Shown: piece by piece, positions 301 to 26,213 of the stretch
Layout of the letters: each line of letters starts with the position of its first letter
How positions within the stretch are numbered: position 1 is the first letter of the stretch
UHGV virus genome: UHGV-0014912
From: a virus
Length of the DNA stretch: 33,704 nt
Direction: 5' to 3' (one strand)
Position numbers and translations under genes: made by a program
The notes under the pieces: model-generated
Databases searched by the model: none
Told to the model about the DNA's origin: nothing
What the model saw: the letters and a program-made list of their open reading frames with translations, nothing else

Positions 301-2700
301 TTACATCTTGCGTCTGTTGCTGTCTTGAACAATAGCCGCGATGTTCTGTTGCTGACGTTTTAATTGTTCAGCAAACCAACGCTGATCAGTAACATTTCCA
401 TTTACGTGAATACTCGCGTCGATTTTTGTTGCTTCTCCTGTTTTGTTATTATCCAAGAATTCTTTTAAGTCGCCGTTTGTGCGTTCATCAACAACACGTT
501 CGCCACCATCAAGCAACCATGTCCCTTCTCTTGGCACTTCTGAAATACCATCGTGAGCCATACCAGTAATATTCACTGATTTCATCTGCAAGACTTGTCC
601 GATAACTCGCGCATAGCTTGAAGCAGCCATAGCGTAACCCATTGGACCAGGATATTTAGCCATTGCAGCAGTTGCGGATTCATAAGCGTTTAACATACCG
701 CTTGCGATTGCTGTACCCTTTTGAATAGCAAATACAGCTTGAGCAGCGTCTGAACTTTCACCTGCGATGCCAGCTATTATTGAACCCATACCAGAAGCAA
801 ACCCGTTATACATTTGGAGTTTCGTCTGAGTTTCCAAGAAAGTAATTTGTTTCGACTTCGCGGCATACGCTTGGTCAAGACGTGCTTTCTGTTGCAGGAA
901 CTGCTCGTGACTGATTAACTGACCATCATATAATTTCTGGTTCTGTTCGCGCATTTTCTGAAATTGTTCATCTAATGCGGCTTGTTGAATAGCCATTTGT
1001 TCTTCGTCAGTTGCAAAACCCAACGCACTAAGATTTTTGATATTAGCCATATTACCATTGCCGCTCGTTGCTTTAATAGCTTCAAGACGTGCCTGATGGT
1101 CTTGCTGTAATGCTTCAATCTGTGTGTTGTATTCTTGCTGACTGATTAACGACTGTGCTTTCTTCGCTTCAAGTTGTTCAAGCTGTTGCTGATATACAAC
1201 TTCAAGACTTGTCGTGATTGCTCCAATTTCTTCAGGACTCGTCATAAGAGTCTGTTTAAATTCTTCGTTAGATGTTTTAAACAGCATGTTTCGGCGTTTC
1301 TTAGCCTGTTCAGCGGAGATAATTCCTTTTTTCTCAAGTTCTGAGATGGTTTTAATAGCCTGATGAACTTGACTAACCTGATTTGAAATCGTTCGACCTT
1401 CTTGACTCAGAATTGCAGCATCAAGACTGGAAAGATTCTGTAACGCAGCCTCCCTGTCTTGCATCATCTTATCGTAGGCAGCTTTAGATTCTCTTGCGGC
1501 TTGCTCCTGTAAGCGTTGCTTTTCTTTAGCAGCGCGTTCTTGTTCTCTTGCTACTCTATCAGCTTCGCGTTTAGCGTTATCAGCTTCTTTTTTCGCTTCC
1601 TCAGCGGCTTTCTCATTACGCTGTTTCTGCAACTTCGCTCGTGTTATTTCGTCTTGCTTACGTTTTTCATAAGCTTTATCACCTTGAGCTTTGGTCTTTT
1701 TCAGAAAACGTTCTGTCGTATCAAGATAATCTTTTTGCAGTTTACGTTGACCTGCGCCAGAAGTCGGGTTAGCGTCTGCATAAGCATCAACAACTGAATC
1801 CGCCATCCAATTAGCTAACATCTTATCAGGACGTAAGCTGTCGATTTCAGTAAAGAAGTCGAGAATACTAGTAGCTGTCCATTCTTTATTCGCGATGTCA
1901 TAAAGATTATTCATCTTAGTGACTAACGGGTCCATAACGTTAACAGCTAAATTATCCAAGTTCACAGAAAGAGTTTTCATCTTTTCATCGAATTCTTGGT
2001 ATTCCCTTGCTGTTTCGTTTGTAATACTAGCTGATTGGTTATTGATAGCGTTTAATGCTTCTTGAGTTGAGCCGTATTTTTCAAGAACAGTAATCAAGTG
2101 AGAACCGTCAGACGCCATAGACTCCATTCCGTTAACGATTTCGGCTTGACTTGCACCAGCTTTTTTCAAGTCATAATAAGTCTGAACAAGTGCTTTAATA
2201 CCGCCTTCGGCGTCGTTAATATATTGAGTGTATCGCTCAAGACCAATACCCCATTTATCAAGGTCATCACTAATACCGCCTGCACCTTCTCTGAATGAAT
2301 CACCGAGATGGTCGAGAGTATCTTTGTTAAGATCTCCGAAACGGTCAATTTCAATTCCTGTAGCGCGAAATTCTTTTTGAAGCTGTTGCAGATATTCAAC
2401 TGAAAGTCCAGTTGACGTAGAGATCTGATTAAGTTCTCTTGTTTTTTCTAAAGCGGTATTAAGAACAGCTACACCTGCGCCTGCTGCCATTCCTGCGATC
2501 CCCAGAGCTTGCATACCTGAGGACATTCCTGCAATAGTTGATATTCCACTGTTGAGATTATTCAACGGTCCTGTCATATTACTAAAAAGCCCATTAGCAA
2601 TCGAATCGAGTTCGTTCAGTTTCTCCATAGACTTATCAATAGATTTTGAAAGGCCTTTGTTATCTCCGTTAATCTCAACGTCATAACGTGATTTAGCCAT
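301..2700 (-). CDS. Tail tape measure protein
   Basis: 799 aa; long K/E/A/Q-rich coiled-coil centre, Gly/Ala-rich hydrophobic C-terminal segments (GFASGMGSIIAGIAG...), directly downstream of a G/T-like chaperone pair. Confidence 0.6.
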   Translation of the reverse strand: MAKSRYDVEINGDNKGLSKSIDKSMEKLNELDSIANGLFSNMTGPLNNLNSGISTIAGMSSGMQALGIAGMAAGAGVAVLNTALEKTRELNQISTSTGLSVEYLQQLQKEFRATGIEIDRFGDLNKDTLDHLGDSFREGAGGISDDLDKWGIGLERYTQYINDAEGGIKALVQTYYDLKKAGASQAEIVNGMESMASDGSHLITVLEKYGSTQEALNAINNQSASITNETAREYQEFDEKMKTLSVNLDNLAVNVMDPLVTKMNNLYDIANKEWTATSILDFFTEIDSLRPDKMLANWMADSVVDAYADANPTSGAGQRKLQKDYLDTTERFLKKTKAQGDKAYEKRKQDEITRAKLQKQRNEKAAEEAKKEADNAKREADRVAREQERAAKEKQRLQEQAARESKAAYDKMMQDREAALQNLSSLDAAILSQEGRTISNQVSQVHQAIKTISELEKKGIISAEQAKKRRNMLFKTSNEEFKQTLMTSPEEIGAITTSLEVVYQQQLEQLEAKKAQSLISQQEYNTQIEALQQDHQARLEAIKATSGNGNMANIKNLSALGFATDEEQMAIQQAALDEQFQKMREQNQKLYDGQLISHEQFLQQKARLDQAYAAKSKQITFLETQTKLQMYNGFASGMGSIIAGIAGESSDAAQAVFAIQKGTAIASGMLNAYESATAAMAKYPGPMGYAMAASSYARVIGQVLQMKSVNITGMAHDGISEVPREGTWLLDGGERVVDERTNGDLKEFLDNNKTGEATKIDASIHVNGNVTDQRWFAEQLKRQQQNIAAIVQDSNRRKM

Positions 2701-3055
2701 TATTCACCTTTTTTGTTTTTCTCAGTTTAACTTTATCCAACAGAGCTGGGTCGAACATCGATTCAATAGCTTTCTTACGTTTAAGCTCCTGTTGTTCTTT
2801 CTCTTTTTCGATTTCTTCTTGAGACTTAAACACAGAATCTTTAATAAGCTGATGGTCTTTCATGTTCAACTTTTTTCTGTACTCTTTGGTCAGATTCGGG
2901 TTATTTGCTTCGATAGTGTGAATCAATCGAGCTTGATAGAAATCGTTATAGACAGGACTTTGTGGTTCAATAAACGAGTCGAAAAACCATAATTCGTAAT
3001 ACATCATTACGGACATCTGTTGAATTTCTTCGTTTGATAATCCGCGACGTAACAT
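2693..3055 (-). CDS. Tail assembly chaperone, T-like frameshift extension (probably expressed as a G-T fusion)
   Basis: Reading frame stays open upstream of its first ATG and overlaps the 3' end of the 3091..3399 ORF in the -1 frame; sits immediately upstream of the tape measure gene. Confidence 0.4.
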   Translation of the reverse strand: MLRRGLSNEEIQQMSVMMYYELWFFDSFIEPQSPVYNDFYQARLIHTIEANNPNLTKEYRKKLNMKDHQLIKDSVFKSQEEIEKEKEQQELKRKKAIESMFDPALLDKVKLRKTKKVNNG

Positions 3056-3090
3056 TGTTCGATACTGAAATGATTTTGCCCAGTTCTGCC

Positions 3091-3399
3091 TTAGTTCTTT
3101 TCCAGAACGTCTGAATCCTTAGTCAGAATACTAGCGTTTGAAACAGCGCTTGCGAGTTGTGAACGAACAGTCGTATAAAGTTTCTGAACTTGAGCGATTT
3201 CTTTAAAAACGCTTGTTCCGTCTTCGTGCTGAATGCAATTTAGAATCATTCGGTCGTTACGTTCTTCTGTGTTTTCATTTTTGAAATAGAATTCACCAAA
3301 CTCGGATACAGTCATCGGACGTGCATAGAATTTATAACCGTTGATTTCAACAGGTTCGCGTTTTGGTGATAGTGATGCTAACATTTCATCGAAATTCAT
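3091..3399 (-). CDS. Tail assembly chaperone (G-like)
   Basis: 102 aa ORF directly before the T-like ORF and tape measure gene; 28-nt -1 overlap containing GGAAAAG. Confidence 0.45.
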   Translation of the reverse strand: MNFDEMLASLSPKREPVEINGYKFYARPMTVSEFGEFYFKNENTEERNDRMILNCIQHEDGTSVFKEIAQVQKLYTTVRSQLASAVSNASILTKDSDVLEKN

Positions 3400-3435
3400 T
3401 TTTGTTTCCCTTTGTTGAGTTTTCTTTTATTTATG

Positions 3436-3460
3436 AAAAAGGGAGCACGAGGCTCCCTTT
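3436..3460. terminator. Bidirectional intrinsic terminator; second copy of the GGGAGCACGAGGCTCCC hairpin
   Basis: Same 17-nt stem-loop as at 279..295, flanked by AAAAA upstream and TTT downstream. Confidence 0.55.
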
Positions 3461-3461
3461 G

Positions 3462-3779
3462 TTATTTCCATTGAAAGAAATATCCGTACATTCTGAAACC
3501 TTTGTGGATATATTCAATCATTCCTAAGTTCTTCGCTTCGGTCTCAAAAAATGGACCTTGCAGTCGAACTGTCTGTCCTAATTTGAAATGACAATTAGGT
3601 TTTTTCTTCTGCGTTGATACAATAAAAACGTTTTTATCGTTGAACAGATATTTTTTAATGCGCTTATCTTTGATGTGTTCACAACTGTAAGGAACAGTCA
3701 TTGACTCTGGATTAATCTCATTAACGTAGATGTCGGCAAGTTCTTCTAATCTGTAAGTATCAAAATCGTGAATGTTCAT
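3462..3779 (-). CDS. Hypothetical phage protein
   Basis: 105 aa ORF with GGAG-type RBS and CTAAATAAAG motif upstream; no motif recognised. Confidence 0.35.
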   Translation of the reverse strand: MNIHDFDTYRLEELADIYVNEINPESMTVPYSCEHIKDKRIKKYLFNDKNVFIVSTQKKKPNCHFKLGQTVRLQGPFFETEAKNLGMIEYIHKGFRMYGYFFQWK

Positions 3780-3794
3780 TTTCTCTCCTTTTGA

Positions 3795-3804
3795 CTTTAT
3801 TTAG
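3795..3804 (-). promoter_or_regulatory. CTAAATAAAG motif (late-promoter-like) upstream of the 3462..3779 gene
   Basis: Exact 10-mer (minus-strand sense) about 17 nt upstream of the ATG with an RBS in between; one of four exact copies, all upstream of minus-strand gene starts. Confidence 0.4.
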
Positions 3805-4339
3805 TACCCGCAACACGCTTAACTGTTTTTAAAATATCGTCAGAGATTTGATTCCATGAACCCAGAGTTTTTCTTCTGTGTTGATTTTTCTTGAATACAG
3901 CAATTAAACGACGGTCTTGCTTTTTAACGTTAGTTTTAATGAGGATCGTTCGAGTTACGCCATCTTTTTTCTGCTTGACAGCTTCAAGATTATTTCTTGA
4001 TTTCAAGTTAGGAATGTTACCGAATTTGTTTTTTGAACCTCTTACGCCAGTTGGAACAAACTTGTTAATTCCTTTGTTATCATCAATCAACGGAGCAAGA
4101 TAATCAGCCTGCTTGTCTTTGATGTATATCCTATTTCGTGACCCGTTCTGATCGTATCTGAAACTGAAACCTACAGCGTTCTTAGTGAAATTAACTGGTC
4201 CATCGACTCGTCTATTGATTTTTCTTTGCAACTCAACAGAAGCAAGTTTAGACGCTTTGGTCACTTTCTTACTGAACACGTCAGATTCTTTGATTCGCCA
4301 TTTTTCAAGGTCTTTCATGACATCTTTTGCTTTTGCCAT
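3797..4339 (-). CDS. Hypothetical basic phage protein
   Basis: 180 aa, Lys/Arg-rich; start overlaps the stop of the upstream ORF (ATGA). Confidence 0.35.
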   Translation of the reverse strand: MAKAKDVMKDLEKWRIKESDVFSKKVTKASKLASVELQRKINRRVDGPVNFTKNAVGFSFRYDQNGSRNRIYIKDKQADYLAPLIDDNKGINKFVPTGVRGSKNKFGNIPNLKSRNNLEAVKQKKDGVTRTILIKTNVKKQDRRLIAVFKKNQHRRKTLGSWNQISDDILKTVKRVAGTK

Positions 4340-4536
4340 TAGTTAGCTCCTGACATCAGAAGCGTCCCAAATGTTTTTATCTGTTCTTCGCTGATAAGAA
4401 TCATCTTAGGTGCATTAATATCGAAAGCTTGAAGAACAGGAACAGCAACAGTGTTATAAGTTATAGTAACGAGAAATAGAACAATAAGATAATCTTTAGC
4501 GTGTTTTGCCATTGCTTGGAGATATTTCATTTTCAT
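4339..4536 (-). CDS. Small membrane protein (possible holin-like); true start may be internal
   Basis: 65 aa with one hydrophobic helix (LIVLFLVTITYNTVAVPVL); overlaps the 3' end of the endonuclease VII gene. Confidence 0.25.
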   Translation of the reverse strand: MKMKYLQAMAKHAKDYLIVLFLVTITYNTVAVPVLQAFDINAPKMILISEEQIKTFGTLLMSGAN

Positions 4537-4972
4537 ATTTCACCTTTATTTGGTTTGAATAGACTTTTTCAAGCTCCTTTTTCGTTTTGAGATTTGAACC
4601 TGTGATAGCTTTCATCTCAGAAAGATTTTTTCGAGAGAACGCTTTCTTTAAATCAGAAATAAGTTGTGGATGAGTAGGATTGTCTGAGTAGTCTTTTTCA
4701 AGATACTTAACAAGATTCTTTAAAAACTCTATGTAGTCGATTTTCCCATCGAGACCTGAACGTTTAAACTGATGTTTTATTCTGCCCTCGAGGACGTTTG
4801 CTTGAGCGATTAATAATCCTCTGCATCTGCCTGCGTTAGAGCCGGTTAAAATATGGTCGTGGTCAAGATGGGCTTTATTAACTTCATGAATCTTTATGCC
4901 AGTTAAAGCACAAAGACCTTTTTGCTTTTGAAAGAGTTCTTGCTTATAAATCGGAATCTCTTTTCTTTTCAT
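4496..4972 (-). CDS. Endonuclease VII-like Holliday junction resolvase (T4 gp49 family)
   Basis: Motif block HLDHDHILTGSNAGRCRGLLIAQANVLEGRIKHQFKRSGLDGKIDYIEFL matches my recollection of T4 endonuclease VII (HLDHDH...VRGLL...EG..KH.F.RSGL). Confidence 0.7.
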   Translation of the reverse strand: MKRKEIPIYKQELFQKQKGLCALTGIKIHEVNKAHLDHDHILTGSNAGRCRGLLIAQANVLEGRIKHQFKRSGLDGKIDYIEFLKNLVKYLEKDYSDNPTHPQLISDLKKAFSRKNLSEMKAITGSNLKTKKELEKVYSNQIKVKYENEISPSNGKTR

Positions 4973-5253
4973 TTTCCTCTTAGAACTGCTAGGTCGATAT
5001 CTAGCTTTGCTGTCCTTCCTTCTAAATTCTTCAAATCAGATTTGACCTCTCGAACTTCATCCTGTTGTCGTGTTAAATCGCTTATAAGCGAAGCATCTTT
5101 GGCGTCATTAACTGCGATGCTTTTTTCGATGTCTGAGAAACGTTTTTCAAGGTCAAGTCGTTTTTCATTGTTTGATTTAATTTCGGTATAAACCCAAGCC
5201 AAGAAACCTCCTAGAGCACCCAAGATGGAAATGATCAGTGCTATATCGACCAT
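4969..5253 (-). CDS. Membrane-anchored coiled-coil protein (i-spanin-like or assembly protein)
   Basis: 94 aa; N-terminal TM helix (IALIISILGALGGFLAWVY) followed by a charged coiled coil. Confidence 0.3.
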   Translation of the reverse strand: MVDIALIISILGALGGFLAWVYTEIKSNNEKRLDLEKRFSDIEKSIAVNDAKDASLISDLTRQQDEVREVKSDLKNLEGRTAKLDIDLAVLRGK

Positions 5254-5283
5254 CTTGAATCTCCTTTTTAAAGACCTCCTTGT

Positions 5284-5293
5284 CTTTATTTAG
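5284..5293 (-). promoter_or_regulatory. CTAAATAAAG motif upstream of the 4969..5253 gene
   Basis: Exact 10-mer about 33 nt upstream of the ATG. Confidence 0.35.
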
Positions 5294-5295
5294 AA

Positions 5296-8200
5296 CTATA
5301 CTTTACTAATAAAGTAAACTGCTCTTGATGCTACCGCACGGTTCAACTCAGCCGTATATGTTAAGTCAACAGCTTGACCAGCTTCGATATAAGCGACACC
5401 ACCGTTTGAGCCGTTTAACGAACGGGATTCCGTGTAAACAACTTCCTGACCGTTTGATAATCTCAGCCACGCTTTACCACCGCCCCAACCAGTACCGCCT
5501 GAATATGTCCAACCTGAAATAGCAACGTTAGGAATAGCAATCATGCGTCTCCAGTTGACAGCAGGAAAATGAACTGTTCCCCACGGATCTATAAATCCCA
5601 TGTCAATAACGTCGCCTTCAATTCTGTCAGCGTATACAGTTCCTGTGAAATAACCTGAACCGCCTCTGATTTCTCCTGAGAAATAACCTGAGTCAGCTTG
5701 AATATTTCCTTTAACGTTAACGTTTTGGAAAGAAGCCCAACCGTCTTTTCTGATTGTCCAACCTTGAGTACCACCGGAAGAGAACCAGTTGTCAGAAGAT
5801 ATTTCATAAGCAATCTGAGCCGAACCGATCTGAGCATTACCAATTTTCGCTGATGTAATAGCACCGTTTTCAATCTTCGCGTTGTTAATAGCAGCATCGC
5901 GAATCTTTGCCGTATCAATTGAAGCGTTTGCAATCTTCGCATTACCGATTGAAGCATCACGAATCATAGCATCTTGGAGATAAGTCTTGTTATCTGCAAC
6001 CATGAACGGAGGAACAGCACCTTCAGGAGTGTTGTTATTCGTAATAGCGATTTTATCAGCGTTGAAAATAATGCTTGATGATTTCGAACCGTCAGCATTT
6101 TTATTAGCGAGCATACTGATACCAGCAACAACACCGTCGGCATTAGTCTGAACTGCCCATTTGCTGTTAATAGTTCCTGTCAGTTCGTCAACACTTGCTT
6201 TTGCTTCTGTTGAAACACTTGCAATTGCTGAGTCAGTTTCAGCTTTCAGTTGGCTAATTGCGCTTGCTGTTGCTTCTCTATCGTTAGCTTGAGTTTTTTC
6301 AACAGTCGTGATAGCAGCGTTTAATTTACCGTCAAACTCAGCCGATTGAATAGTAATAGCCTGATTGATAGCGCCATTCGTTCCATCAGTTATTTGAGTG
6401 TGTAACTCAGCGTTTTTGGTAATAATCGTCTGATTCAGTTCTGTTGTTACTTTTTGCTCCGACGCTATAACTTCTGTATCGGTATATTCCTTAGCAAGTT
6501 TCAAAGCGTCTTCAATAGCACCGTCAACGCGTTCGTTCAGGTCTAACAAGTCTTCTAATTGGTCTTTCATATCGTCGTTCCATGGAATATCCCATTTCAT
6601 ATCGATATAAGTCGCCTGTGACCAAGTAATCTGGTCTTGTCCGAAAACGTCATACCATGCTGCACGAACATAATATTGACCATCTTCTAACGGGAAGTTG
6701 TCTAAAAACGGACTTGAGCTTGAATAAACGTGAACAATTTCATTAAAGCTTTGGTCTTTCGCAATATGAACAATTGTGCCTTTGAAGTCAGGTACTTCAG
6801 GAATATTATCACGTGGGTCATTCCATGAACACATCAGCATTCCAGGACCATTCGAAGCTGTGAAACCTTGAATTGCAGGAGCTTGATTGTTCTTGACAGT
6901 AATAACACTCGGATCTGATTTCATACCAGCGTGACCGTATGCAGTAACAGAAACTTTCAGTTCGCGACTCAGACCATTACCCAAGTTCATATTAAAGTCG
7001 TATACAAAACCTAAATCTTTAGTCTTGTAAATTACAGGTCGTTGACCTTCGATTTTAATTTCGTAATACTGAAAAACTTCACCGAATGTCTGTAACGTGT
7101 CGTCAACATAGAATTTCTGTGCGCTCTGGTCGTCCCAGGCGAATTCAAATTGAGTCTTGTTAGTGGTGTACTGATCCTCAACCGCGTTCGTTAGGCGCAA
7201 TCCTGTAACGCTTGGTAAGTTATACGTAACATCAGGGTTAACGTTATTCACATATACCCATTCTGAACGATACACAACACCAGAAGCACAAACACGAATA
7301 TCAAATTTCTGATTAGGGTCAAGACTCATAATCAAGAAATAATCGCCTGATGTGAAACCTGCTTGAGTCCAAGAGTTCTGACCAGCAAGACTATACTGAA
7401 TATAATAACCTGCGCGGTTATAATCAGGTTCAGACGTCCATTGCACTTTCAAAGTTCTTCCTAAAGCGGTTTCAGCAACTGCTTTAACTGTCAGATTCTT
7501 CGGTGGAATAAGAACAGCTTTGTTAGGAATGTTACTTCCTGAGTTATCAGGGTCTTTCGCGTAGTCAAGATCGGTATAAACTTCTTCGATATATTCAGCA
7601 GCGGTAATAGTAACGATACCAGCAGCACCTTTTTCCATCGTGCGATCAACGTTAGTTACACGCCATAAGGAATCAGTCAGTTCCAGTTCTTCGAAATTAA
7701 CTCTGATAATATCCCAGACCTGAACGGTATAAGCATCAGCAGACGAAAAACTAATAACCTGTTGTAACAGTGATTTGTTTCGTTCTATTGAAGCAATTTT
7801 GTCCAACTGAGCTTTATCTTTAACGAATCTGTAACTAATATCTTTTGCGATAATACGTTTATCTTTTGCGATAGTTCCATCATTTGTTACGTCAGACGGA
7901 TAACGAAGAACTTGGTCAGAATAGTCAATCAAAGGATCTTGATATTTCACGTTCAGAGTGTTGTAGTAATTCTCTGTTCCACCATCGTTCAAGCTAACAG
8001 TTCCGGCGTTAATATTATCCTCGTTGAAATCATATTGAACAACACCAGGACCATCGATAACGCAAGTAACTAATCCGAAAGACTCTGTGATAATACCGTT
8101 AAAAGCACCTGCAATCTGAGTTAAGTTTTCTTTGAATGAACCATTCGGGTCAGTTGCACCGTTTGAAAACAGACTGTTCAGTTTTGCGTGTTCTGCACAT

Positions 8201-8985
8201 TGCTTGAAACTATCAAGATTGATTTTATCAAGTGGAATACCCAGACCGTAACGTTCGTTCGTTAGATAATCGACTGCTTGACTAGGACCATTGTTTGAAG
8301 GAGAGATGCCTCCTGTGTTCAGGTCAGTAATCAAACGTCCTCTAACGTCAACAGCTACTTGACTGTTAGGTTGCAGGATATCAGCTTGGTTTTCTAAGTC
8401 TTTGTTACGTTTACGCATAACGACACAAACAGAAGCGATACCATTACCAGTTGCAGAATCAGGCCAACCAGCTGGGTCATTTCCTAGATATTTCTGAGCA
8501 AGCGTGAAAACGTGACCGTATGGTTTACCAGTTGAGAATTCAACTTCAACGAAATTCTGATATTCAGCAGCGATAGAGCCTTTATCTAAAATGCCATCTC
8601 TGTAAGTTCCATCAAGTAAGATTTTCTGATTATCCATATACAGGTTTTTGAAGCTATCAACTTCACCTTCACAGATTGCAAAGACTTGCACCAGATAAGT
8701 CGTATCGACACCAACAGATTTCCAAACGTTAATAGTCCCTGTACGTTGTTCGCCGTAGATAATAGGAATTACGCTTGCAGGGTCAGACGTTGTTCCTAGT
8801 GTCGTTGCAGTGTCTGCGCTATTAAATCGAGGAACAGATTCTTTCATCGAATAGGACATTAATCCTGAAACAGCAGCAACAGCGACACCAATACCGATAG
8901 CAACAGCAAGAGCAGCACCAGCGGCATATGCCGCAGCAGCAGCGGAAGCACCCGCAATAATTGCACCAATAGCAGCAATAGCCAT
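5296..8985 (-). CDS. Tail tip / host-specificity protein (lambda J-like) with an I-like hydrophobic N-terminal segment
   Basis: 1229 aa; N-terminal region loosely resembles the start of lambda J; C-terminal tandem short repeats ([40 protein letters not shown]); N-terminal Ala/Gly-rich hydrophobic stretch. Confidence 0.55.
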
Positions 8986-9401
8986 TATTTTCTCCTGTTG
9001 AAAATTAATTCAAAATTAAAATCGTTAACGTTCACTAGTTTGTATTTGTTTTCGTGTTCAACCAATGCTTGATTATTGAAAACGATGGACGCAACGTAAT
9101 AGACACGGTTTTTATGTTTTTTCTTAATTAAGATAACCGAGCCAGTTTCTATCTTTTCTGATTTCGCAAGATGATTTTCACAAGCTTCGAGAACGTTGTT
9201 AAAACCAGTTAGCTCTTTGCAAATCTTGAGACCTTCGGGAATACTCTTGTATTTGTCTTTTAATTTGTCTGTGTATTCAGTAGCACAAACAAGGTCGATA
9301 TATTCAGCAACAAGGATATTACAGTCGTTTTGACCGAACTGATGTTCTTTGTTGATATATCGATTCAGTAATTTTGATAAGTCAGCTTGAAATTTAAACA
9401 T
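8985..9401 (-). CDS. Hypothetical tail-associated protein (possibly a K-like cysteine peptidase)
   Basis: 138 aa immediately upstream of and coupled to the J-like gene; Cys and His residues present ([11 protein letters not shown]) but no confident motif. Confidence 0.25.
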
Positions 9402-9414
9402 GTTTCACCTCTGA

Positions 9415-9424
9415 CTTTATTTAG
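9415..9424 (-). promoter_or_regulatory. CTAAATAAAG motif upstream of the 8985..9401 gene
   Basis: Exact 10-mer 17 nt upstream of the ATG, directly after the terminator of the preceding gene. Confidence 0.4.
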
Positions 9425-9426
9425 AG

Positions 9427-9452
9427 CCAAAAAAGGACTCATAAGGAGTCCT
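9427..9452 (-). terminator. Intrinsic terminator after the putative major tail gene
   Basis: Stem AGGACTC / GAGTCCT with loop ATAAG, preceded on the plus strand by an A-run (U-run on the minus RNA). Confidence 0.6.
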
Positions 9453-9467
9453 TCTTACTTCGTTCAA

Positions 9468-9947
9468 TTAAGCTTCTGGAGTAGTCGTATCGATAACGCC
9501 TGAAGCAACTGGACCACCGTCAACAGAAAGTGTCAGAGTCAGACCAGAAACTTCTGATTCTCCACCATTGTGAACAGCGCTTGACAAGAAACCGTTATAC
9601 ATTTTCGCAACGCCCAGATCTTTAGCAGCATCGACCCAATAAACGATTTTGAACTGACCACGTTTACCATCTTCCGCAAGCTTAATCAGAACATCATGAA
9701 CGCTTTCTGGAATATAGTTAACAGTCAAGTCGATATCAGGAACAGAACCACGACCAACAAGCTTACGAGAATACTTATGAGAGAAGTTCGGAGCTGTAAT
9801 AACTTCACGCTCAATACCAGTAGAAGGGAATGCACCAGTCTCTGGAATTTCAACGAATTTGTCGTTATTCAAGTCTGTGTTAGTGATATCAGAGTTATAG
9901 AACACACTGACGTAAGAGCCAGAGAAAATATCAAATTTATCAGCCAT
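9468..9947 (-). CDS. Putative major tail (tube-like) protein
   Basis: 159 aa; loose pattern resemblance to lambda V; TATAAATA element 30 nt upstream and a strong terminator downstream, consistent with a highly expressed structural gene. Confidence 0.35.
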   Translation of the reverse strand: MADKFDIFSGSYVSVFYNSDITNTDLNNDKFVEIPETGAFPSTGIEREVITAPNFSHKYSRKLVGRGSVPDIDLTVNYIPESVHDVLIKLAEDGKRGQFKIVYWVDAAKDLGVAKMYNGFLSSAVHNGGESEVSGLTLTLSVDGGPVASGVIDTTTPEA

Positions 9948-9976: not shown

Positions 9977-9984
9977 TATTTATA
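9977..9984 (-). promoter_or_regulatory. TATAAATA element (T4-late-promoter-like) upstream of the 9468..9947 gene
   Basis: Minus-strand TATAAATA about 30 nt upstream of the ATG. Confidence 0.3.
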
Positions 9985-10006
9985 AAGGGAATTCCTCCCC
10001 TTTTTG

Positions 10007-14644: not shown

Positions 14645-16615
14645 TTATTTTGCAGCTTTAGAACCAGCAGCTTCTGCTTTTTCATACAGATACAGACGGT
14701 CGTCAGCACAAACTTTCCAATCGATGTCAGCCCAAACACGTGGAACGATAGCACCGCGTGATTTGTAAGTTGTATCGTCCAGGTCAAGTGCAAGACCTTC
14801 CCATTCAGCAACAGTAACAGCAGAGAAATCACCAGCGATAACATTACCATCTTTCACCAGACCGGATCCGATAACGTCCTGTCCGCCGATTTTGTTCATG
14901 TCGTCGATGATATAACCAGCAACGTTCTGATCACGCAGGGTGGTTTTCAGATCACCTTCAAGAGCAGCAGCCATCAGATATTTGAACTTAGCCATTTCAA
15001 CGCCGTTACCTTTAGCTTTTGCAGCTTCAACGATGAACTCTTTGTAGGACATTCCCATTTTCTGAGCTACTAACTGTGCAACGATACTTTCTGGAGCTTT
15101 AGCATCGGTAATAGAACCGAACATCAGACCTTCCAGTTTAGCGCGAGACTGTTTTACGATGTGATCAGAAATGAAGCTTCCCAGATTAGGCATAGTCAAC
15201 AGAGCCTGACGAGAGATTGGGTTACCACCAGTAAATGTCTTAGGCATGAACTGAATGTTGGTAAATGCGCTTTCACCTTCTGGAGATTCACCGTTTTCGT
15301 CAACGAAACCGAATGCATCAACTGAGGATTTAGTCTGCTTAGGAACAGAAATTGGAGTTGTCAGACCGGTCAGGAAGTTCATTCCCAGTTGATCAGCAAC
15401 AGTGCCTTTCAGAAGCATTTCAACGAATGAATCGTAACGCTGAACTTCTTGCTGTACGCTTGATACAGTAGAAACGGTGTTGATTGCGCGGGCGTTCTGA
15501 GCAAGAGTATTAACAGGCAAGAAAATACCAGTCGAAACGTTCTGACCACGTTGTAGACGCTTACGAGTCATTTCCTGAGTATATTCAGCAGCAGCACCGC
15601 GAACAGCTTTACCAGCCATCATAGAGCGAACAGCATCACCAAGGTCGAATTTATTTTCCAGATTTACTTTAGTATCTTTAGTCATTTTACGAATTACCGC
15701 CGGAGCTTTGTTAGGTTTAATAGAGCGTTTGAATGCACGAGCTGTCATGCCTTTTGCAATTGCGTTCGCAACTTCTTTCTGCGGAACTTTATAACGTTCT
15801 GCGACTTCCAGAATTTCTTCTGTTTCTTCTGCGCGTTCTTCTTCTGTCAGTTCGTCATCAGCATGGGATTTATCAGTTTCGGTAACAGCAACGTCACCAG
15901 CTTGTTCTGCGTTTGCTTTATCTTCTGCAAGAATTTCTTCGCGTTTTGCGCGAGCTTCTTCTGGCATTGATTCAATTTCATCGATAGACATATCGGTCAA
16001 TTCTTCAATCGCCATTTCAACGATTTCGTCAACGGTAATATCTTCAAAACGTTTCATCTTATTTCCTCTATTTGTTGAATTTAATTTTTCGCGCAATTTC
16101 GTAGCGCTTTTGTTATCTGTATTTAGAAGTCTTCCCAGCCCAACAAAATCGTCAGCAGGAACAGTTACGAAACTAATTTCGTATGGTGCCCATTTTGTAA
16201 CTAACAGATTATCGCCTTGAAGTTCATATTCATTGATGTCGTATCCGAAGGAGATTTTACTAATAGTTCCTTCTTTAACTTTTTCATAAACTTCTTTAGC
16301 TAATGCACCGTGTTTACTAAATTGGACTTTTGCGCGACCAAATCGGTCACTATCGATTCGAACAGAACCAGGAATTACTTTTCCCAGATGATTATCGAAA
16401 TTATGATTGAACAGCAGAGCCGCACCATTATTAATTCGAGTCAAGTCGGCATTATCTGGACCATCGTGAACAAGAATTTCATTAACAGTAACAGGGTGAC
16501 CATATTCGTTTTCAATCTGACGCTCGACAGGAGTTTCAGAGCTAAACGCAATTTCAAAAATACCATCGGATTCAGTAATATCTTGAACTGTATACTCGCG
16601 TTTTAATTTAAGCAT
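14645..16615 (-). CDS. Prohead protease - scaffold - major capsid protein fusion (HK97-fold capsid), with an in-frame internal start for a capsid-only product
   Basis: Single ORF; N-terminal ~165 aa protease-like, acidic scaffold-like linker, C-terminal capsid-like region; ORF track start at 16627 is TTG, ATG at 16615 has a GAGGA RBS; internal in-frame ATG at 16057 with AGAGGAAATAAG RBS. Confidence 0.65.
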   Translation of the reverse strand: MLKLKREYTVQDITESDGIFEIAFSSETPVERQIENEYGHPVTVNEILVHDGPDNADLTRINNGAALLFNHNFDNHLGKVIPGSVRIDSDRFGRAKVQFSKHGALAKEVYEKVKEGTISKISFGYDINEYELQGDNLLVTKWAPYEISFVTVPADDFVGLGRLLNTDNKSATKLREKLNSTNRGNKMKRFEDITVDEIVEMAIEELTDMSIDEIESMPEEARAKREEILAEDKANAEQAGDVAVTETDKSHADDELTEEERAEETEEILEVAERYKVPQKEVANAIAKGMTARAFKRSIKPNKAPAVIRKMTKDTKVNLENKFDLGDAVRSMMAGKAVRGAAAEYTQEMTRKRLQRGQNVSTGIFLPVNTLAQNARAINTVSTVSSVQQEVQRYDSFVEMLLKGTVADQLGMNFLTGLTTPISVPKQTKSSVDAFGFVDENGESPEGESAFTNIQFMPKTFTGGNPISRQALLTMPNLGSFISDHIVKQSRAKLEGLMFGSITDAKAPESIVAQLVAQKMGMSYKEFIVEAAKAKGNGVEMAKFKYLMAAALEGDLKTTLRDQNVAGYIIDDMNKIGGQDVIGSGLVKDGNVIAGDFSAVTVAEWEGLALDLDDTTYKSRGAIVPRVWADIDWKVCADDRLYLYEKAEAAGSKAAK

Positions 16616-16668
16616 TTTAGTCCTCAAGATTGAGCGTCTTTCGACGCTCTTTTGTTTTCTGAATATAT

Positions 16669-20630: not shown

Positions 20631-20775
20631 AAGTCACCTAAGCTAATGAATCCTTTATGGATTCCATCTCTCATGACTCTATTTATGAAAATATCCACAA
20701 TTATTTTCGGAGGTCGCTTGCACCTGGATTTTCGCCTGTTAAAGTTCAATCCATCGAAACACGGGGAATAACGAA

Positions 20776-21882: not shown

Positions 21883-22091
21883 AGTTTTCCTTCATTTAAT
21901 TTTCTGCAACTGTCAATATCGAGTTTAGCTGTTTCTGGATTATACTCTGTGAGATTACAGATAACACCTTGCTGTTTGAATGTTTCAACGTTGATATTAC
22001 TGTTAATACATCCTATCAGAGAAAAAGCTCCGACAATCGTCAGAGCCATGATAATAGGTTTAAAAAGTTGTTTTGCTTGTTCGTTATTCAT
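21879..22091 (-). CDS. Small outer-membrane-type lipoprotein (candidate superinfection-exclusion, Cor/Llp-like)
   Basis: 70 aa; signal peptide with lipobox LIGC (PIIMALTIVGAFSLIGC); mature part about 45 aa; TAATG-coupled to the upstream HEG. Confidence 0.4.
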   Translation of the reverse strand: MNNEQAKQLFKPIIMALTIVGAFSLIGCINSNINVETFKQQGVICNLTEYNPETAKLDIDSCRKLNEGKL

Positions 22092-22699
22092 TACGCTGCC
22101 TCTCTTAAACGACGTGCTTGTTGTGCTAGTTTCATTTTCTCGATAGTTTCAGCAGAACGAGTTCCGATAACACGACCTTTATTTGCTTTGCCGATTTTCT
22201 TTTTTGTTTCTTCTGACTGAACAGAACCGGTTTTTGCTTTTGAGATTTTTCTACGTGTCTCTAGTGAAACAACATGACCAGTCATGCTATCAGAGATTTT
22301 CTTGTTTCTTTCTTTAATTTGTTGTTCTGTCATGGATTTAAAAACGTTGCCTCCCGCTTGTCCTGATGAAATATTTAATAAGTTAGCTTGCTGTTGTCTT
22401 GCGTGTTTAATGCAAGCAGTTTCGAAGTCATACGCTTCCTGTTCGTCTGTGAAAGTCTTTAGAACAACTTTAAACACAACGTCTGTCGGTTTCATTTCTG
22501 CTAGTTTCTCACGAACTAAACGACCGCTGCCTATATAAAGCATGTCAGGCTGTTCATTGTAAGATTGTTTGCCGTAATAAACGTAACTGACATCATTGAT
22601 GCGAAAAACGGTTTTATAAACTGCGTAAGCTTTGATTTCAGCGTTACGGATATCAGAACGGGTTTTGTAAGTTACGTTGTTAATAGTGCGCTTGTGCAT
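22091..22699 (-). CDS. GIY-YIG homing endonuclease with NUMOD3 repeats (Seg / I-TevI-like)
   Basis: 202 aa; N-terminal GIY-YIG-like AVYKTVFRINDVSYVYYGKQ; three C-terminal NUMOD3-like repeats (GHVVSLETRRKISKAKTG, SVQSEETKKKIGKANKG, RVIGTRSAETIEKMKLAQ). Confidence 0.7.
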   Translation of the reverse strand: MHKRTINNVTYKTRSDIRNAEIKAYAVYKTVFRINDVSYVYYGKQSYNEQPDMLYIGSGRLVREKLAEMKPTDVVFKVVLKTFTDEQEAYDFETACIKHARQQQANLLNISSGQAGGNVFKSMTEQQIKERNKKISDSMTGHVVSLETRRKISKAKTGSVQSEETKKKIGKANKGRVIGTRSAETIEKMKLAQQARRLREAA

Positions 22700-23529: not shown

Positions 23530-23537
23530 TATAAATA
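23530..23537 (+). promoter_or_regulatory. TATAAATA element (T4-late-promoter-like) upstream of the 23562..24008 gene
   Basis: Exact TATAAATA 25 nt upstream of the ATG, followed by AAGGAG RBS. Confidence 0.35.
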
Positions 23538-24008: not shown

Positions 24009-24182
24009 TTTTTCGAGAGTTTGTTTACTATCCCGGTGATGGGTATAAATACTAGTATAAGTTAAAGATTCGCACTGATTGAGAGATTTCTTCCTCGTTT
24101 GTTTACTCTCAGTCATTACGATTATAAAATAACTATGAAAGCAAGTTCATTTAGAAAATCCAAATAAAATTCCTTAAAGTTT

Positions 24183-25877: not shown

Positions 25878-26213
25878 TGTTTTTCTCCAATCGTAGAGGG
25901 AATAAGGGTTTAACTGTATTTATCAGTCAGCGTCAGGGAATCCTCCGGGATATTTATGTCAACTGGAATGAACTGCACTGTAAATAATCCCTCACAGGTG
26001 AAATTTAAATCGAGCGCTTGAAACATCTCGGTGTTTCAGAAGTCCCAGAGTAACTATTATTTTTTGTTAGAGGGGGGCAGAAGATGAGTCGTTAAAACTT
26101 ATTTAAGCAATATCATTAATGATTTATATTTGGCTGCGTTTTAGGCTAATCAGCAGCCAAATTTTTAATTGTCGATGAAACGCCAGTATCGCTAAAAATA
26201 GAGCTATATAAAA

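Follow-up and report, generated by a model that had tools for sequence, protein, structure and literature searches.

In a prophage of enteric bacteria, the second of the two chaperone genes in front of the tape measure gene is very probably expressed by programmed −1 frameshifting of ribosomes, in the manner of lambda G/GT, at the heptamer G_GAA_AAG near the end of the first. The pair was analysed within the window, i.e., the whole 33,704-nt stretch of viral genome UHGV-0014912, where the minus strand is the coding strand for all genes of this junction. Support for the frameshift comes from the geometry of the two ORFs (hereafter G and T), the identity of G as a chaperone, the conservation of the site in relatives, a −1-frame coding signal upstream of the presumed T start codon, and the lack of an independent start for T. 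Features are listed in Table 1.

Table 1. Features of the chaperone/tape measure junction in the window.
Feature	Position	Strand	Remarks
Terminator-like intergenic hairpin with U-run (3438..3460), then CATAAATA	3428..3460	−	Upstream of G
G, tail assembly chaperone ORF, zero-frame product, 102 aa	3091..3399	−	
SD-like TAAGGA, 12 nt 5′ of the heptamer	3116..3121	−	Anti-SD duplex −5.8 kcal/mol
G/T overlap, 28 nt	3091..3118	−	−1-frame stop TAA at 3121..3119
Slip site G_GAA_AAG (predicted)	3097..3103	−	Sole in-phase A_AAG in the overlap; conserved in relatives
T extension after the predicted slip, 134 codons + stop, −1 frame	2693..3097	−	
ATG taken as T start by gene callers; most likely an internal Met of GT	3053..3055	−	Without SD; not conserved
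Tape measure protein gene, 799 aa	301..2700	−	phrog_13674, E = 1.1e-72

The first-pass annotation had described a 102-aa ORF that overlaps the following ORF by 28 nt in the −1 frame, and its coordinates were reproduced: G begins at ATG 3399 and ends at TAA 3093..3091. The second ORF, as called, runs from ATG 3055 to TAA 2695..2693 (120 aa), and the distance between the two starts (3399 − 3055 = 344; 344 mod 3 = 2) places it in the −1 frame relative to G. This frame is closed by the TAA upstream of the overlap and is open from 3118 to 2693, i.e., across the overlap and ahead of its first ATG, as had been claimed; with the G stop included, G and the open frame share the 28 nt at 3118..3091. G and T lie directly upstream of the tape measure gene (2700..301), the start of which shares 8 nt with the end of the T frame. 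Also upstream of G, but not adjoining it, is the major tail gene (9947..9468; phrog_158, E = 4.6e-15); J, EndoVII and other genes fill the 6 kb between them. No promoter or terminator match was found between G and T. The hairpin upstream of G is kept in 8 relatives with compensatory stem changes, and CATAAATA, located 3′ of it, may be a promoter for G-T-TMP. We searched for a gp55-like late sigma factor to match the ATAAATA motifs, and none was recognised.

G is a tail assembly chaperone, as indicated by profile and fold comparison (gpG-like fold). It matched phrog_344 ‘tail assembly chaperone’ (E = 5.6e-7), and 16 of its 19 homologues matched Pfam Phage_TAC_13 at E ≤ 0.01 (best 7e-6). These matches, with the tape measure gene directly next, bear out the earlier description of the genes as a tail assembly chaperone pair. 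Fold comparison was needed to see the likeness of G to PDB structures because a profile of G homologues gave no significant match to PDB sequences; identity to the HK97 tail assembly chaperone (PDB 2ob9) was only 15%. The T domain of the window sequence matched no PHROG or Pfam family, and phrog_337 ‘tail protein’ was touched by 2 of 10 relatives.

GGAAAAG (plus-strand CTTTTCC) is present at 3103..3097, inside the overlap, and is phased G_GAA_AAG within the zero-frame sequence GAC GTT CTG GAA AAG AAC TAA. It had been termed non-canonical, rightly so, since it does not fit X_XXY_YYZ. The minimal Z_ZZN motif A_AAG is in phase and is conserved among relatives. A_AAG is the top-ranked, most shift-prone tetramer in E. 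coli (PMC4066793), and NNA_AAG sites are in natural use, e.g., IS1222 G_CGA_AAG (PMC5009743; PMC4066793). The genes of the window contain 43 in-phase A_AAG in 9223 codons, and AAG is their minor Lys codon (22%); the chance of at least one in-phase A_AAG in a 9-codon overlap is ~4%. A literature search for GGAAAAG and frameshifting returned nothing on ribosomal frameshifting; the match concerned mouse Fancm and meiotic crossovers.

We compared 65 related junctions (~40 distinct sequences; T identity from 99% down to 33%) from Escherichia, Enterobacter, Klebsiella, Citrobacter, Buttiauxella and viral contigs. The family was present in 36 of 5426 complete E. coli genomes; E. coli L3Cip3, an inducible lysogen, is 97.7% identical. 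A_AAG was counted by script at 64 junctions and both by hand and by script in Escherichia phage DCP80. A contig scan with a single protein query confirmed no relatives; an alignment query yielded no more than 3 loci, and of these L014 (Phycisphaerae) was a short spurious match and was left out. Neither a DNA search of 2400..3800 against deposited phages nor tblastn of G against phages produced a match. All 65 junctions have G followed by T in the −1 frame, and in-phase A_AAG occurs once, and only once, in every overlap, at the homologous position. The likeness in position and geometry to the G/GT frameshift, proposed earlier for the single sequence, thus extends to the whole family, in which frame relation, site and position are all kept. 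Six heptamers occur at the site: G_GAA_AAG, A_GAA_AAG, G_GTA_AAG, A_GTA_AAG, A_AAA_AAG and T_TTA_AAG. Canonical heptamers are found in only four relatives, A_AAA_AAG in L013, L026 and L064 and T_TTA_AAG in DCP80. Conservation centres on the A_AAG tetranucleotide, on which tRNA-Lys would slip; the P-site codon varies. In a 164-column alignment of 13 relatives (72% mean identity), no run of more than 2 nt is invariant except GAAAAG, and the flanking C-terminus of G varies freely. It is this comparison with relatives that decides that the site is more than chance. The zero-frame stop lies 0-1 codons past the slip site in 62 of the 65 loci.

T could instead be a separate 120-aa protein, made from ATG 3055 by independent initiation or termination-reinitiation without any frameshift. 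We consider this improbable. The ATG lies 36 nt past the G stop in the window and in several relatives, and gene callers and RefSeq annotate T as a free-standing ORF; however, the starts chosen by the callers differ among relatives and give lengths of 81-121 aa. The ATG has no SD, its anti-SD duplex being +0.7 kcal/mol vs −3.7 to −8.7 kcal/mol for nine neighbouring genes. In L005, L006, L007, L009 and L011 the codon is ATT or ATA (Ile) instead, and the first in-frame ATG of T is found 31-89 codons in. Amino-acid conservation in the T frame begins at the slip site, 15 codons ahead of the ATG, with GK-E-[IL]-RQN as the first motif. Codon-position entropy from the slip site to the ATG is 0.68 / 0.57 / 1.05, the third position being the most variable, which is the periodicity of a coding −1 frame. 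The tblastn homology of T to DCP80 also begins upstream of the ATG. These findings indicate that T has no independent start, having neither an SD nor a conserved Met. Some free T may be produced in the window by reinitiation at ATG 3055.

Still less probable is a frame change that arises in the RNA or DNA, e.g., by slippage of transcription on the A-run or through population heterogeneity, or one at another place in the overlap. The site does carry an A-run, and polymerase slippage is conceivable on the seven A of L013, L026 and L064; however, the window and most relatives have four A (GGAAAAG) or three (GGTAAAG), which is shorter than known transcriptional slippage requires. The codon phase of A_AAG is invariant, which fits tRNA re-pairing rather than polymerase slippage. 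No other in-phase slippery motif was found in any overlap examined. The overlap is 16 nt in 37 loci and 10 nt in L026 and L064; overlaps of 10–16 nt in relatives pin the site and leave no alternative place for the frame change. That T is unexpressed, or that a frameshift mutation has split a single, now decayed gene into this pair, is hardly credible: searches of the prophage recognised no replication or regulatory genes, and it might be defective, but the identical split, phase and site recur at 65 loci in several enteric genera and viral contigs, T is under protein-level constraint (70% mean column identity, 21 invariant columns), and neither an unsplit, ancestor-like in-frame G-T fusion nor a match spanning both halves was found among 1.84 billion representative proteins.

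At G_GAA_AAG, the occurrence and efficiency of slippage and the functions of the G and T domains are inferred as follows. The majority of ribosomes would make the 102-aa G (11.5 kDa) and stop at its TAA. A minority would slip by −1 while GAA (Glu100) occupies the P site and AAG (Lys101) the A site. The tRNA-Lys would move from AAG to AAA with perfect re-pairing, and the tRNA-Glu from GAA to GGA via G-C, G·U and A-U pairs; GAA→GGA re-pairing via G·U has been proposed for a different phage motif (PMC10885494). Reading in the −1 frame would then begin at GAA 3097..3095 and run up to the stop at 2695..2693, giving a predicted GT fusion of 235 aa (~27 kDa) that is composed of G residues 1-101 and the T part, with the junction …DVLEK-ELRQNW… (longer form, …DSDVLEK-ELRQNWAKSFQYRTMLRRGL…). 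As in lambda, the tape measure protein would be bound by the G part and the tail tube protein recruited by the T part; the G:GT ratio would follow from a low frequency of slipping. Trypsin cleaves the GT junction at K101; therefore, mass spectrometry of the junction peptide needs another protease.

RNA structure prediction downstream of the slip site, one of the checks proposed in the first-pass annotation, revealed no conserved structure. The single-sequence fold had an MFE of −17.8 kcal/mol vs a shuffle mean of −16.0 kcal/mol (z = −0.67), and RNAalifold on 13 relatives gave 0 pairs. A downstream stem-loop or pseudoknot stimulator, which in stimulated cassettes of the dnaX / IS3 / IS911 type follows the slip site by 5-9 nt, was ruled out by this shuffle-tested and alignment-based folding. 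On the upstream side, where such cassettes carry an internal SD about 10-14 nt ahead of the slip site, the TAAGGA duplex is the best anti-SD window in the whole G gene. L007, L010 and some distant relatives likewise carry an SD-like element, but L002, L003, L005, L008, L009, L011 and L012 lack one. TAAGGA is possibly a local enhancer, i.e., an upstream stimulator of the dnaX type that is not conserved. In reporters, A_AAG gives ~0.15% frameshifting without a stimulator, barely above background, and ~5.6% only with a strong pseudoknot (PMC4066793). Frameshift efficiency at this site could be very low, because the family has no conserved stimulator and unstimulated A_AAG is weak in such reporters. 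It is conceivable, though we think it rather unlikely, that the ribosome shifts on A_AAG (NNA_AAG) alone without RNA structure and that the nearby zero-frame stop acts as a pause or stimulator in the manner of a ‘shifty stop’.

The closest parallel is the lambda G/GT frameshift (Levin, Hendrix & Casjens 1993; Xu, Hendrix & Duda 2004, 2013, 2014; summarised in PMC5009743). Both systems have two ORFs directly ahead of the tape measure gene, the second being in the −1 frame, and the slip (predicted here) occurs at a Lys AAG near the end of G to give a G-T fusion. The chaperone fold is common to both, and neither has an evident strong RNA stimulator. The lambda site is the canonical G_GGA_AAG, whereas G_GAA_AAG differs from it by one base, because of which P-site re-pairing needs the G·U pair here. 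No sequence similarity between the pair and lambda G or T was seen, and the major tail gene, which is not adjacent here, lies 6 kb upstream.

A_AAG sites without full XXX re-pairing are known from IS1222 (G_CGA_AAG) and Bacillus subtilis cdd (A_CGA_AAG) (PMC5009743, citing Licznar et al. 2003). As predicted here, tRNA-Lys moves from AAG to AAA after a codon that ends in A. However, those sites, one in an IS transposase and the other in a cellular gene, depend on flanking stimulators, whereas the present site belongs to a tail chaperone pair, has no conserved stimulator and, in most relatives, is followed within 0-1 codons by the zero-frame stop. In E. coli dnaX (A_AAA_AAG) the A-site event is the one predicted here, and L013, L026 and L064 carry this very heptamer at the homologous position; the possible SD-like stimulator of the window, 12 nt upstream of the slip site, is placed much as in dnaX. 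The strong downstream hairpin of dnaX, with ~50% efficiency, has no counterpart here.

The first ~30 kb of Escherichia phage DCP80 (PQ671644) is the only deposited phage record with detectable homologues (identities: T, 33%; TerL, 51%; major tail, 57%; hub, 46%). Its G and T stand in the same −1 relation and are annotated as separate hypothetical proteins. In contrast to the window, DCP80 has the canonical T_TTA_AAG as its slip heptamer, which precedes the G stop by 11 codons, and the order of its tail genes is the classical one (major tail, G, T, TMP, hub, J), with the major tail gene adjoining G.

Within the family, G is labelled ‘hypothetical’ or, wrongly, ‘cytochrome’, and T is a stand-alone ORF with arbitrary starts; ribosomal slippage is not recorded. 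What is new is an unannotated member of the G/GT frameshift class; the mechanism was already known, and the established picture of G/GT frameshifting is unchanged. The practical value lies mainly in the annotation of prophages in E. coli, Enterobacter, Klebsiella and Citrobacter, and tools and surveys restricted to X_XXY_YYZ would miss this site. For recoding biology, the family provides a natural series of six heptamers at one position, with only A_AAG in common and no conserved RNA stimulator. The series could be used to test the contributions of P-site pairing and stop-codon proximity to low-level −1 frameshifting. If frameshifting on A_AAG alone is true, the exchange of P-site codons (GAA, GTA, AAA, TTA) would represent a natural series for the tuning of the G:GT ratio.

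In the window, the tail assembly chaperone ORF (G), the −1-frame ORF that follows it (T) and the tape measure protein gene (TMP) all lie on the minus strand. The G and T frames overlap by 28 nt, and the T-frame stop falls 8 nt within the following 799-aa gene. The overlap contains GGAAAAG (plus strand CTTTTCC). Because the zero frame of G ends GAC GTT CTG GAA AAG AAC TAA, the heptamer is phased G_GAA_AAG. The first-pass annotation had described this overlap, a T frame open through it ahead of the first ATG, and a heptamer that is non-canonical relative to the lambda site G_GGA_AAG; the sequence agreed on each point.

Coordinates of features in the window, unless another record is named
Feature	Coordinates	Strand	Remark
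G (102 aa)	ATG 3399 to TAA 3093..3091	minus	
T frame (141 codons)	open 3118 to stop 2695..2693	minus	−1 vs G; closed before by TAA 3121..3119
First ATG of T frame	3055	minus	
Heptamer GGAAAAG	3103..3097	minus	plus strand 3097..3103
TMP (799 aa)	2700..301	minus	
ATAAATA sites 1-5	3428-3434, 9977-9983, 20680-20686, 23531-23537, 24045-24051		
ATAAATA sites 6-9	25917-25923, 25951-25957, 28246-28252, 28265-28271		
Hairpin with U-run	3438-3460		immediately upstream of G
Hairpin	9985-10005		ahead of major tail gene
Prophage element	301-31922		
Major tail gene through TMP	301-9947		
Endonuclease VII-like gene	4496-4972		
660-aa ORF	14645-16627		
NUMOD3 ORF	22091-22699		
298-aa ORF	26214-27110		
Distal-tail and hub genes (191, 215 aa)	28270-29492		opposite strand
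Insertion sequence in Enterobacter locus L002	4186-5399 of L002		

The 799-aa protein was identified as a tape measure protein (phrog_13674, E = 1.1e-72), and the 102-aa protein matched phrog_344 'tail assembly chaperone' (E = 5.6e-7). G matched Pfam Phage_TAC_13 weakly (17.6 bits, under the 28.8-bit cut-off); 16 of 19 G homologues matched it at E ≤ 0.01 (best 7e-6). RefSeq lists the products of G, T and TMP as hypothetical proteins, and no frameshift site was annotated in the RefSeq and NCBI entries examined. G and its homologues (P0027-P0046) carry the name 'cytochrome' in many NCBI/UniRef entries, among them ones of E. coli, Citrobacter, Klebsiella and Salmonella; the name is without support and looks like a propagated misannotation.

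A DNA-level search of deposited phages gave no match to window 2400..3800. Protein searches revealed T homologues in prophages of Enterobacter, Escherichia, Klebsiella and Citrobacter. We compared 10 loci obtained by exact protein look-up, 50 viral contigs and 2 usable genome contigs obtained by T alignment, one RefSeq E. coli copy, and Escherichia phage DCP80, the sole deposited phage match. At all 65 junctions (~40 distinct sequences), T lay in the −1 frame after a G-like ORF of ~100-117 aa, in keeping with the G/GT geometry proposed in the first-pass annotation. Each overlap contained exactly one in-phase A_AAG. The heptamer was G_GTA_AAG in 35 loci, G_GAA_AAG in 19, A_GAA_AAG in 5, A_AAA_AAG in 3, A_GTA_AAG in 2 and T_TTA_AAG in one (DCP80); it always held the same position with respect to a conserved motif of the T frame, K-x(1-4)-N-[WPS]…F..R. 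Thirty-seven loci had an overlap of 16 nt; in L026 and L064 it was just 10 nt, with a −1-frame TGA immediately 5′ of AAAAAAG, which leaves no other place for the frame change in these two loci. In the window's clade, 13 relatives with a mean column identity of 72% shared a single invariant run of more than 2 bases, GAAAAG, and the G C-terminus around it varied freely. In L002, an insertion sequence with a DDE_Tnp_1 transposase sits where T ends, ahead of TMP, and gives T a different C-terminus (…SRSCLPKLTR); this copy is probably inactive as a result.

Conservation patterns indicate that reading of T starts at the slip site and not at the ATG. Aligned T-frame proteins were conserved from the first post-slip residues (GK-E-[IL]-R-Q-N…), and the tblastn match to DCP80 began at open-frame residue 8, ahead of the ATG. 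Over the 15 codons from slip site to ATG, entropy at −1-frame codon positions 1/2/3 was 0.68 / 0.57 / 1.05, the same pattern as past the ATG (0.91 / 0.53 / 1.29). Independent initiation or reinitiation of the 120-aa T has a low probability in this particular sequence; as the family's mechanism, translation of T alone is contradicted by this coding signal 5′ of the ATG and by an ATG that is neither conserved nor preceded by a Shine-Dalgarno sequence (+0.7 kcal/mol, where nine neighbouring starts give −3.7 to −8.7). L005, L006, L007, L009 and L011 have Ile in place of the Met at 3055 and then no ATG for 31-89 codons. No promoter-like or terminator-like sites were found between G and T. Transcriptional slippage could also change the frame at the A run, but is unlikely, as the A run is just four residues long and it is the codon phase that stays invariant. 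Decay of a once-single gene is contradicted by retention of the split across genera and by protein-level constraint on T. When the predicted fusion was used as query in a full HMMER scan against 1.84 billion representative proteins, the hits were only separate G-like or T-like proteins of ~56-130 aa and none spanning both halves; the split is therefore the family's normal state.

Taken computationally, a lambda G/GT-type −1 frameshift at G_GAA_AAG is well supported and very probable. The predicted GT fusion would be 235 aa, comprising G residues 1-101 through Lys AAG and continuing from GAA (3097..3095), with the junction …DSDVLEK|ELRQNWAKSFQYRTMLRRGL…. All family heptamers share A_AAG, which shifts more readily than any other tetranucleotide in E. 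coli (Sharma et al. 2014, PMC4066793; Atkins et al. 2016, PMC5009743); the reason given is that there is only one tRNA-Lys, whose pairing is poor on AAG and perfect on AAA. Sites of the NNA_AAG type occur in nature, e.g. IS1222 G_CGA_AAG, and their efficiency varies with the P-site tRNA (PMC5009743, PMC4066793). On G_GAA_AAG, tRNA-Glu would re-pair with GGA via G-C, G·U and A-U. GAA→GGA re-pairing was proposed in PMC10885494 for a different phage motif; the catalogue in that paper includes a 'twofour' pattern, which GGAAAA fits by name. RNA structure prediction 3′ of the slip site, suggested in the first-pass annotation, gave no support (z = −0.67; no consensus pairs). TAAGGA, 12 nt 5′ of the site, forms the strongest anti-SD duplex within G (−5.8 kcal/mol) at a spacing that suits dnaX-type stimulation; it is missing from many relatives. 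The zero-frame stop lies 0-1 codons past AAG in 62 of 65 loci, and 4-11 codons past it in L028, L029 and DCP80. Efficiency here may be low, since A_AAG alone gave only about 0.15% in reporters (PMC4066793); a low value would be compatible with a chaperone required in small amounts.

ATAAATA occurs 9 times in the window (8.7 expected; no overall excess), with all nine copies in the 13% outside ORFs (naive P about 1e-8) and oriented toward the next gene. A start codon lies 16-70 nt downstream of eight; for the copy at 24045, the next listed ORF (24395) is 344 nt away. The genes that the eight point at include G, major tail, TerL, small terminase, distal tail and lysozyme. (C/T)ATAAATA resembles TATAAATA, the late promoter of T4; the element has no recognised gp55-like sigma factor. 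The motif could be the element's promoter type, and perhaps a hint that it depends on late transcription of the T4 kind. The copy upstream of G follows a GC-rich, terminator-like hairpin, which is kept in 8 relatives (L001-L011 intergenic regions) with differing, compensating stems and always with an ATAAATA-like motif after it; a comparable pair precedes the major tail gene. The arrangement resembles a terminator with a promoter behind it, which would put G-T-TMP in a transcription unit of its own.

The prophage (~31 kb) has host genes on its flanks, and E. coli chromosomes hold near-identical copies (97.7% identity across window 2600..3500). It carries full head, tail, lysis and packaging genes, among them large and small terminase, portal, protease-capsid fusion, major tail protein, J-like tip protein, fibres and lysozyme, together with a large serine recombinase. 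Profile searches recognised no replication, repressor or antirepressor genes in it; possible readings are a defective prophage, a satellite-like element, or just a lineage that has been little studied. The 660-aa ORF, an apparent protease-capsid fusion, matches major head protein and head maturation protease families (phrog_617, phrog_4523, phrog_80). The 298-aa ORF has a CAP12/Pycsar-type TIR effector domain (E = 4.8e-38), is also present in E. coli L007 and is likely anti-phage defence cargo. The endonuclease VII-like gene within the tail module is kept in relatives and owes its identity to them: the syntenic genes of L002-L011 match PF02945, DCP80 annotates a 'recombination endonuclease VII', and RefSeq has an 'endonuclease domain-containing protein'. 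Away from the tail module there is also an ORF of the NUMOD3 homing-endonuclease type.

G/T has the same functional arrangement as lambda G/GT, in which the G:GT ratio is about 30:1 at G_GGA_AAG (PMC5009743). Compared with that textbook case, the heptamer is non-canonical and the tail order unusual, as J, an endonuclease VII gene and others separate G from the major tail gene, 6 kb upstream; neither is unprecedented. The window order is major tail, 138 aa, J, 94 aa, EndoVII, 65 aa, 180 aa, 105 aa, G, T, TMP, host, with the distal-tail and hub genes 25 kb off beside the recombinase. DCP80, in contrast, has the classical order (major tail, G, T, TMP, hub, J, EndoVII, 183 aa, 99 aa). The window layout is not a one-off scramble, because J-through-TMP-then-host recurs in the fetched Enterobacter, Klebsiella and Citrobacter loci (4-kb flanks, beginning inside J). 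The DCP80 record (PQ671644.1, L066, 1-40000) is classed as a T4-like Gaprivervirus of 141 kb; its first ~30 kb is a siphovirus-like module akin to the window prophage (identity 51% for TerL, 57% for major tail and 46% for hub) and is joined to the T4-like genes motA, ndd and rIIA. Either the assembly is chimeric, or the record hints that elements of this sort travel together with T4-like phages.
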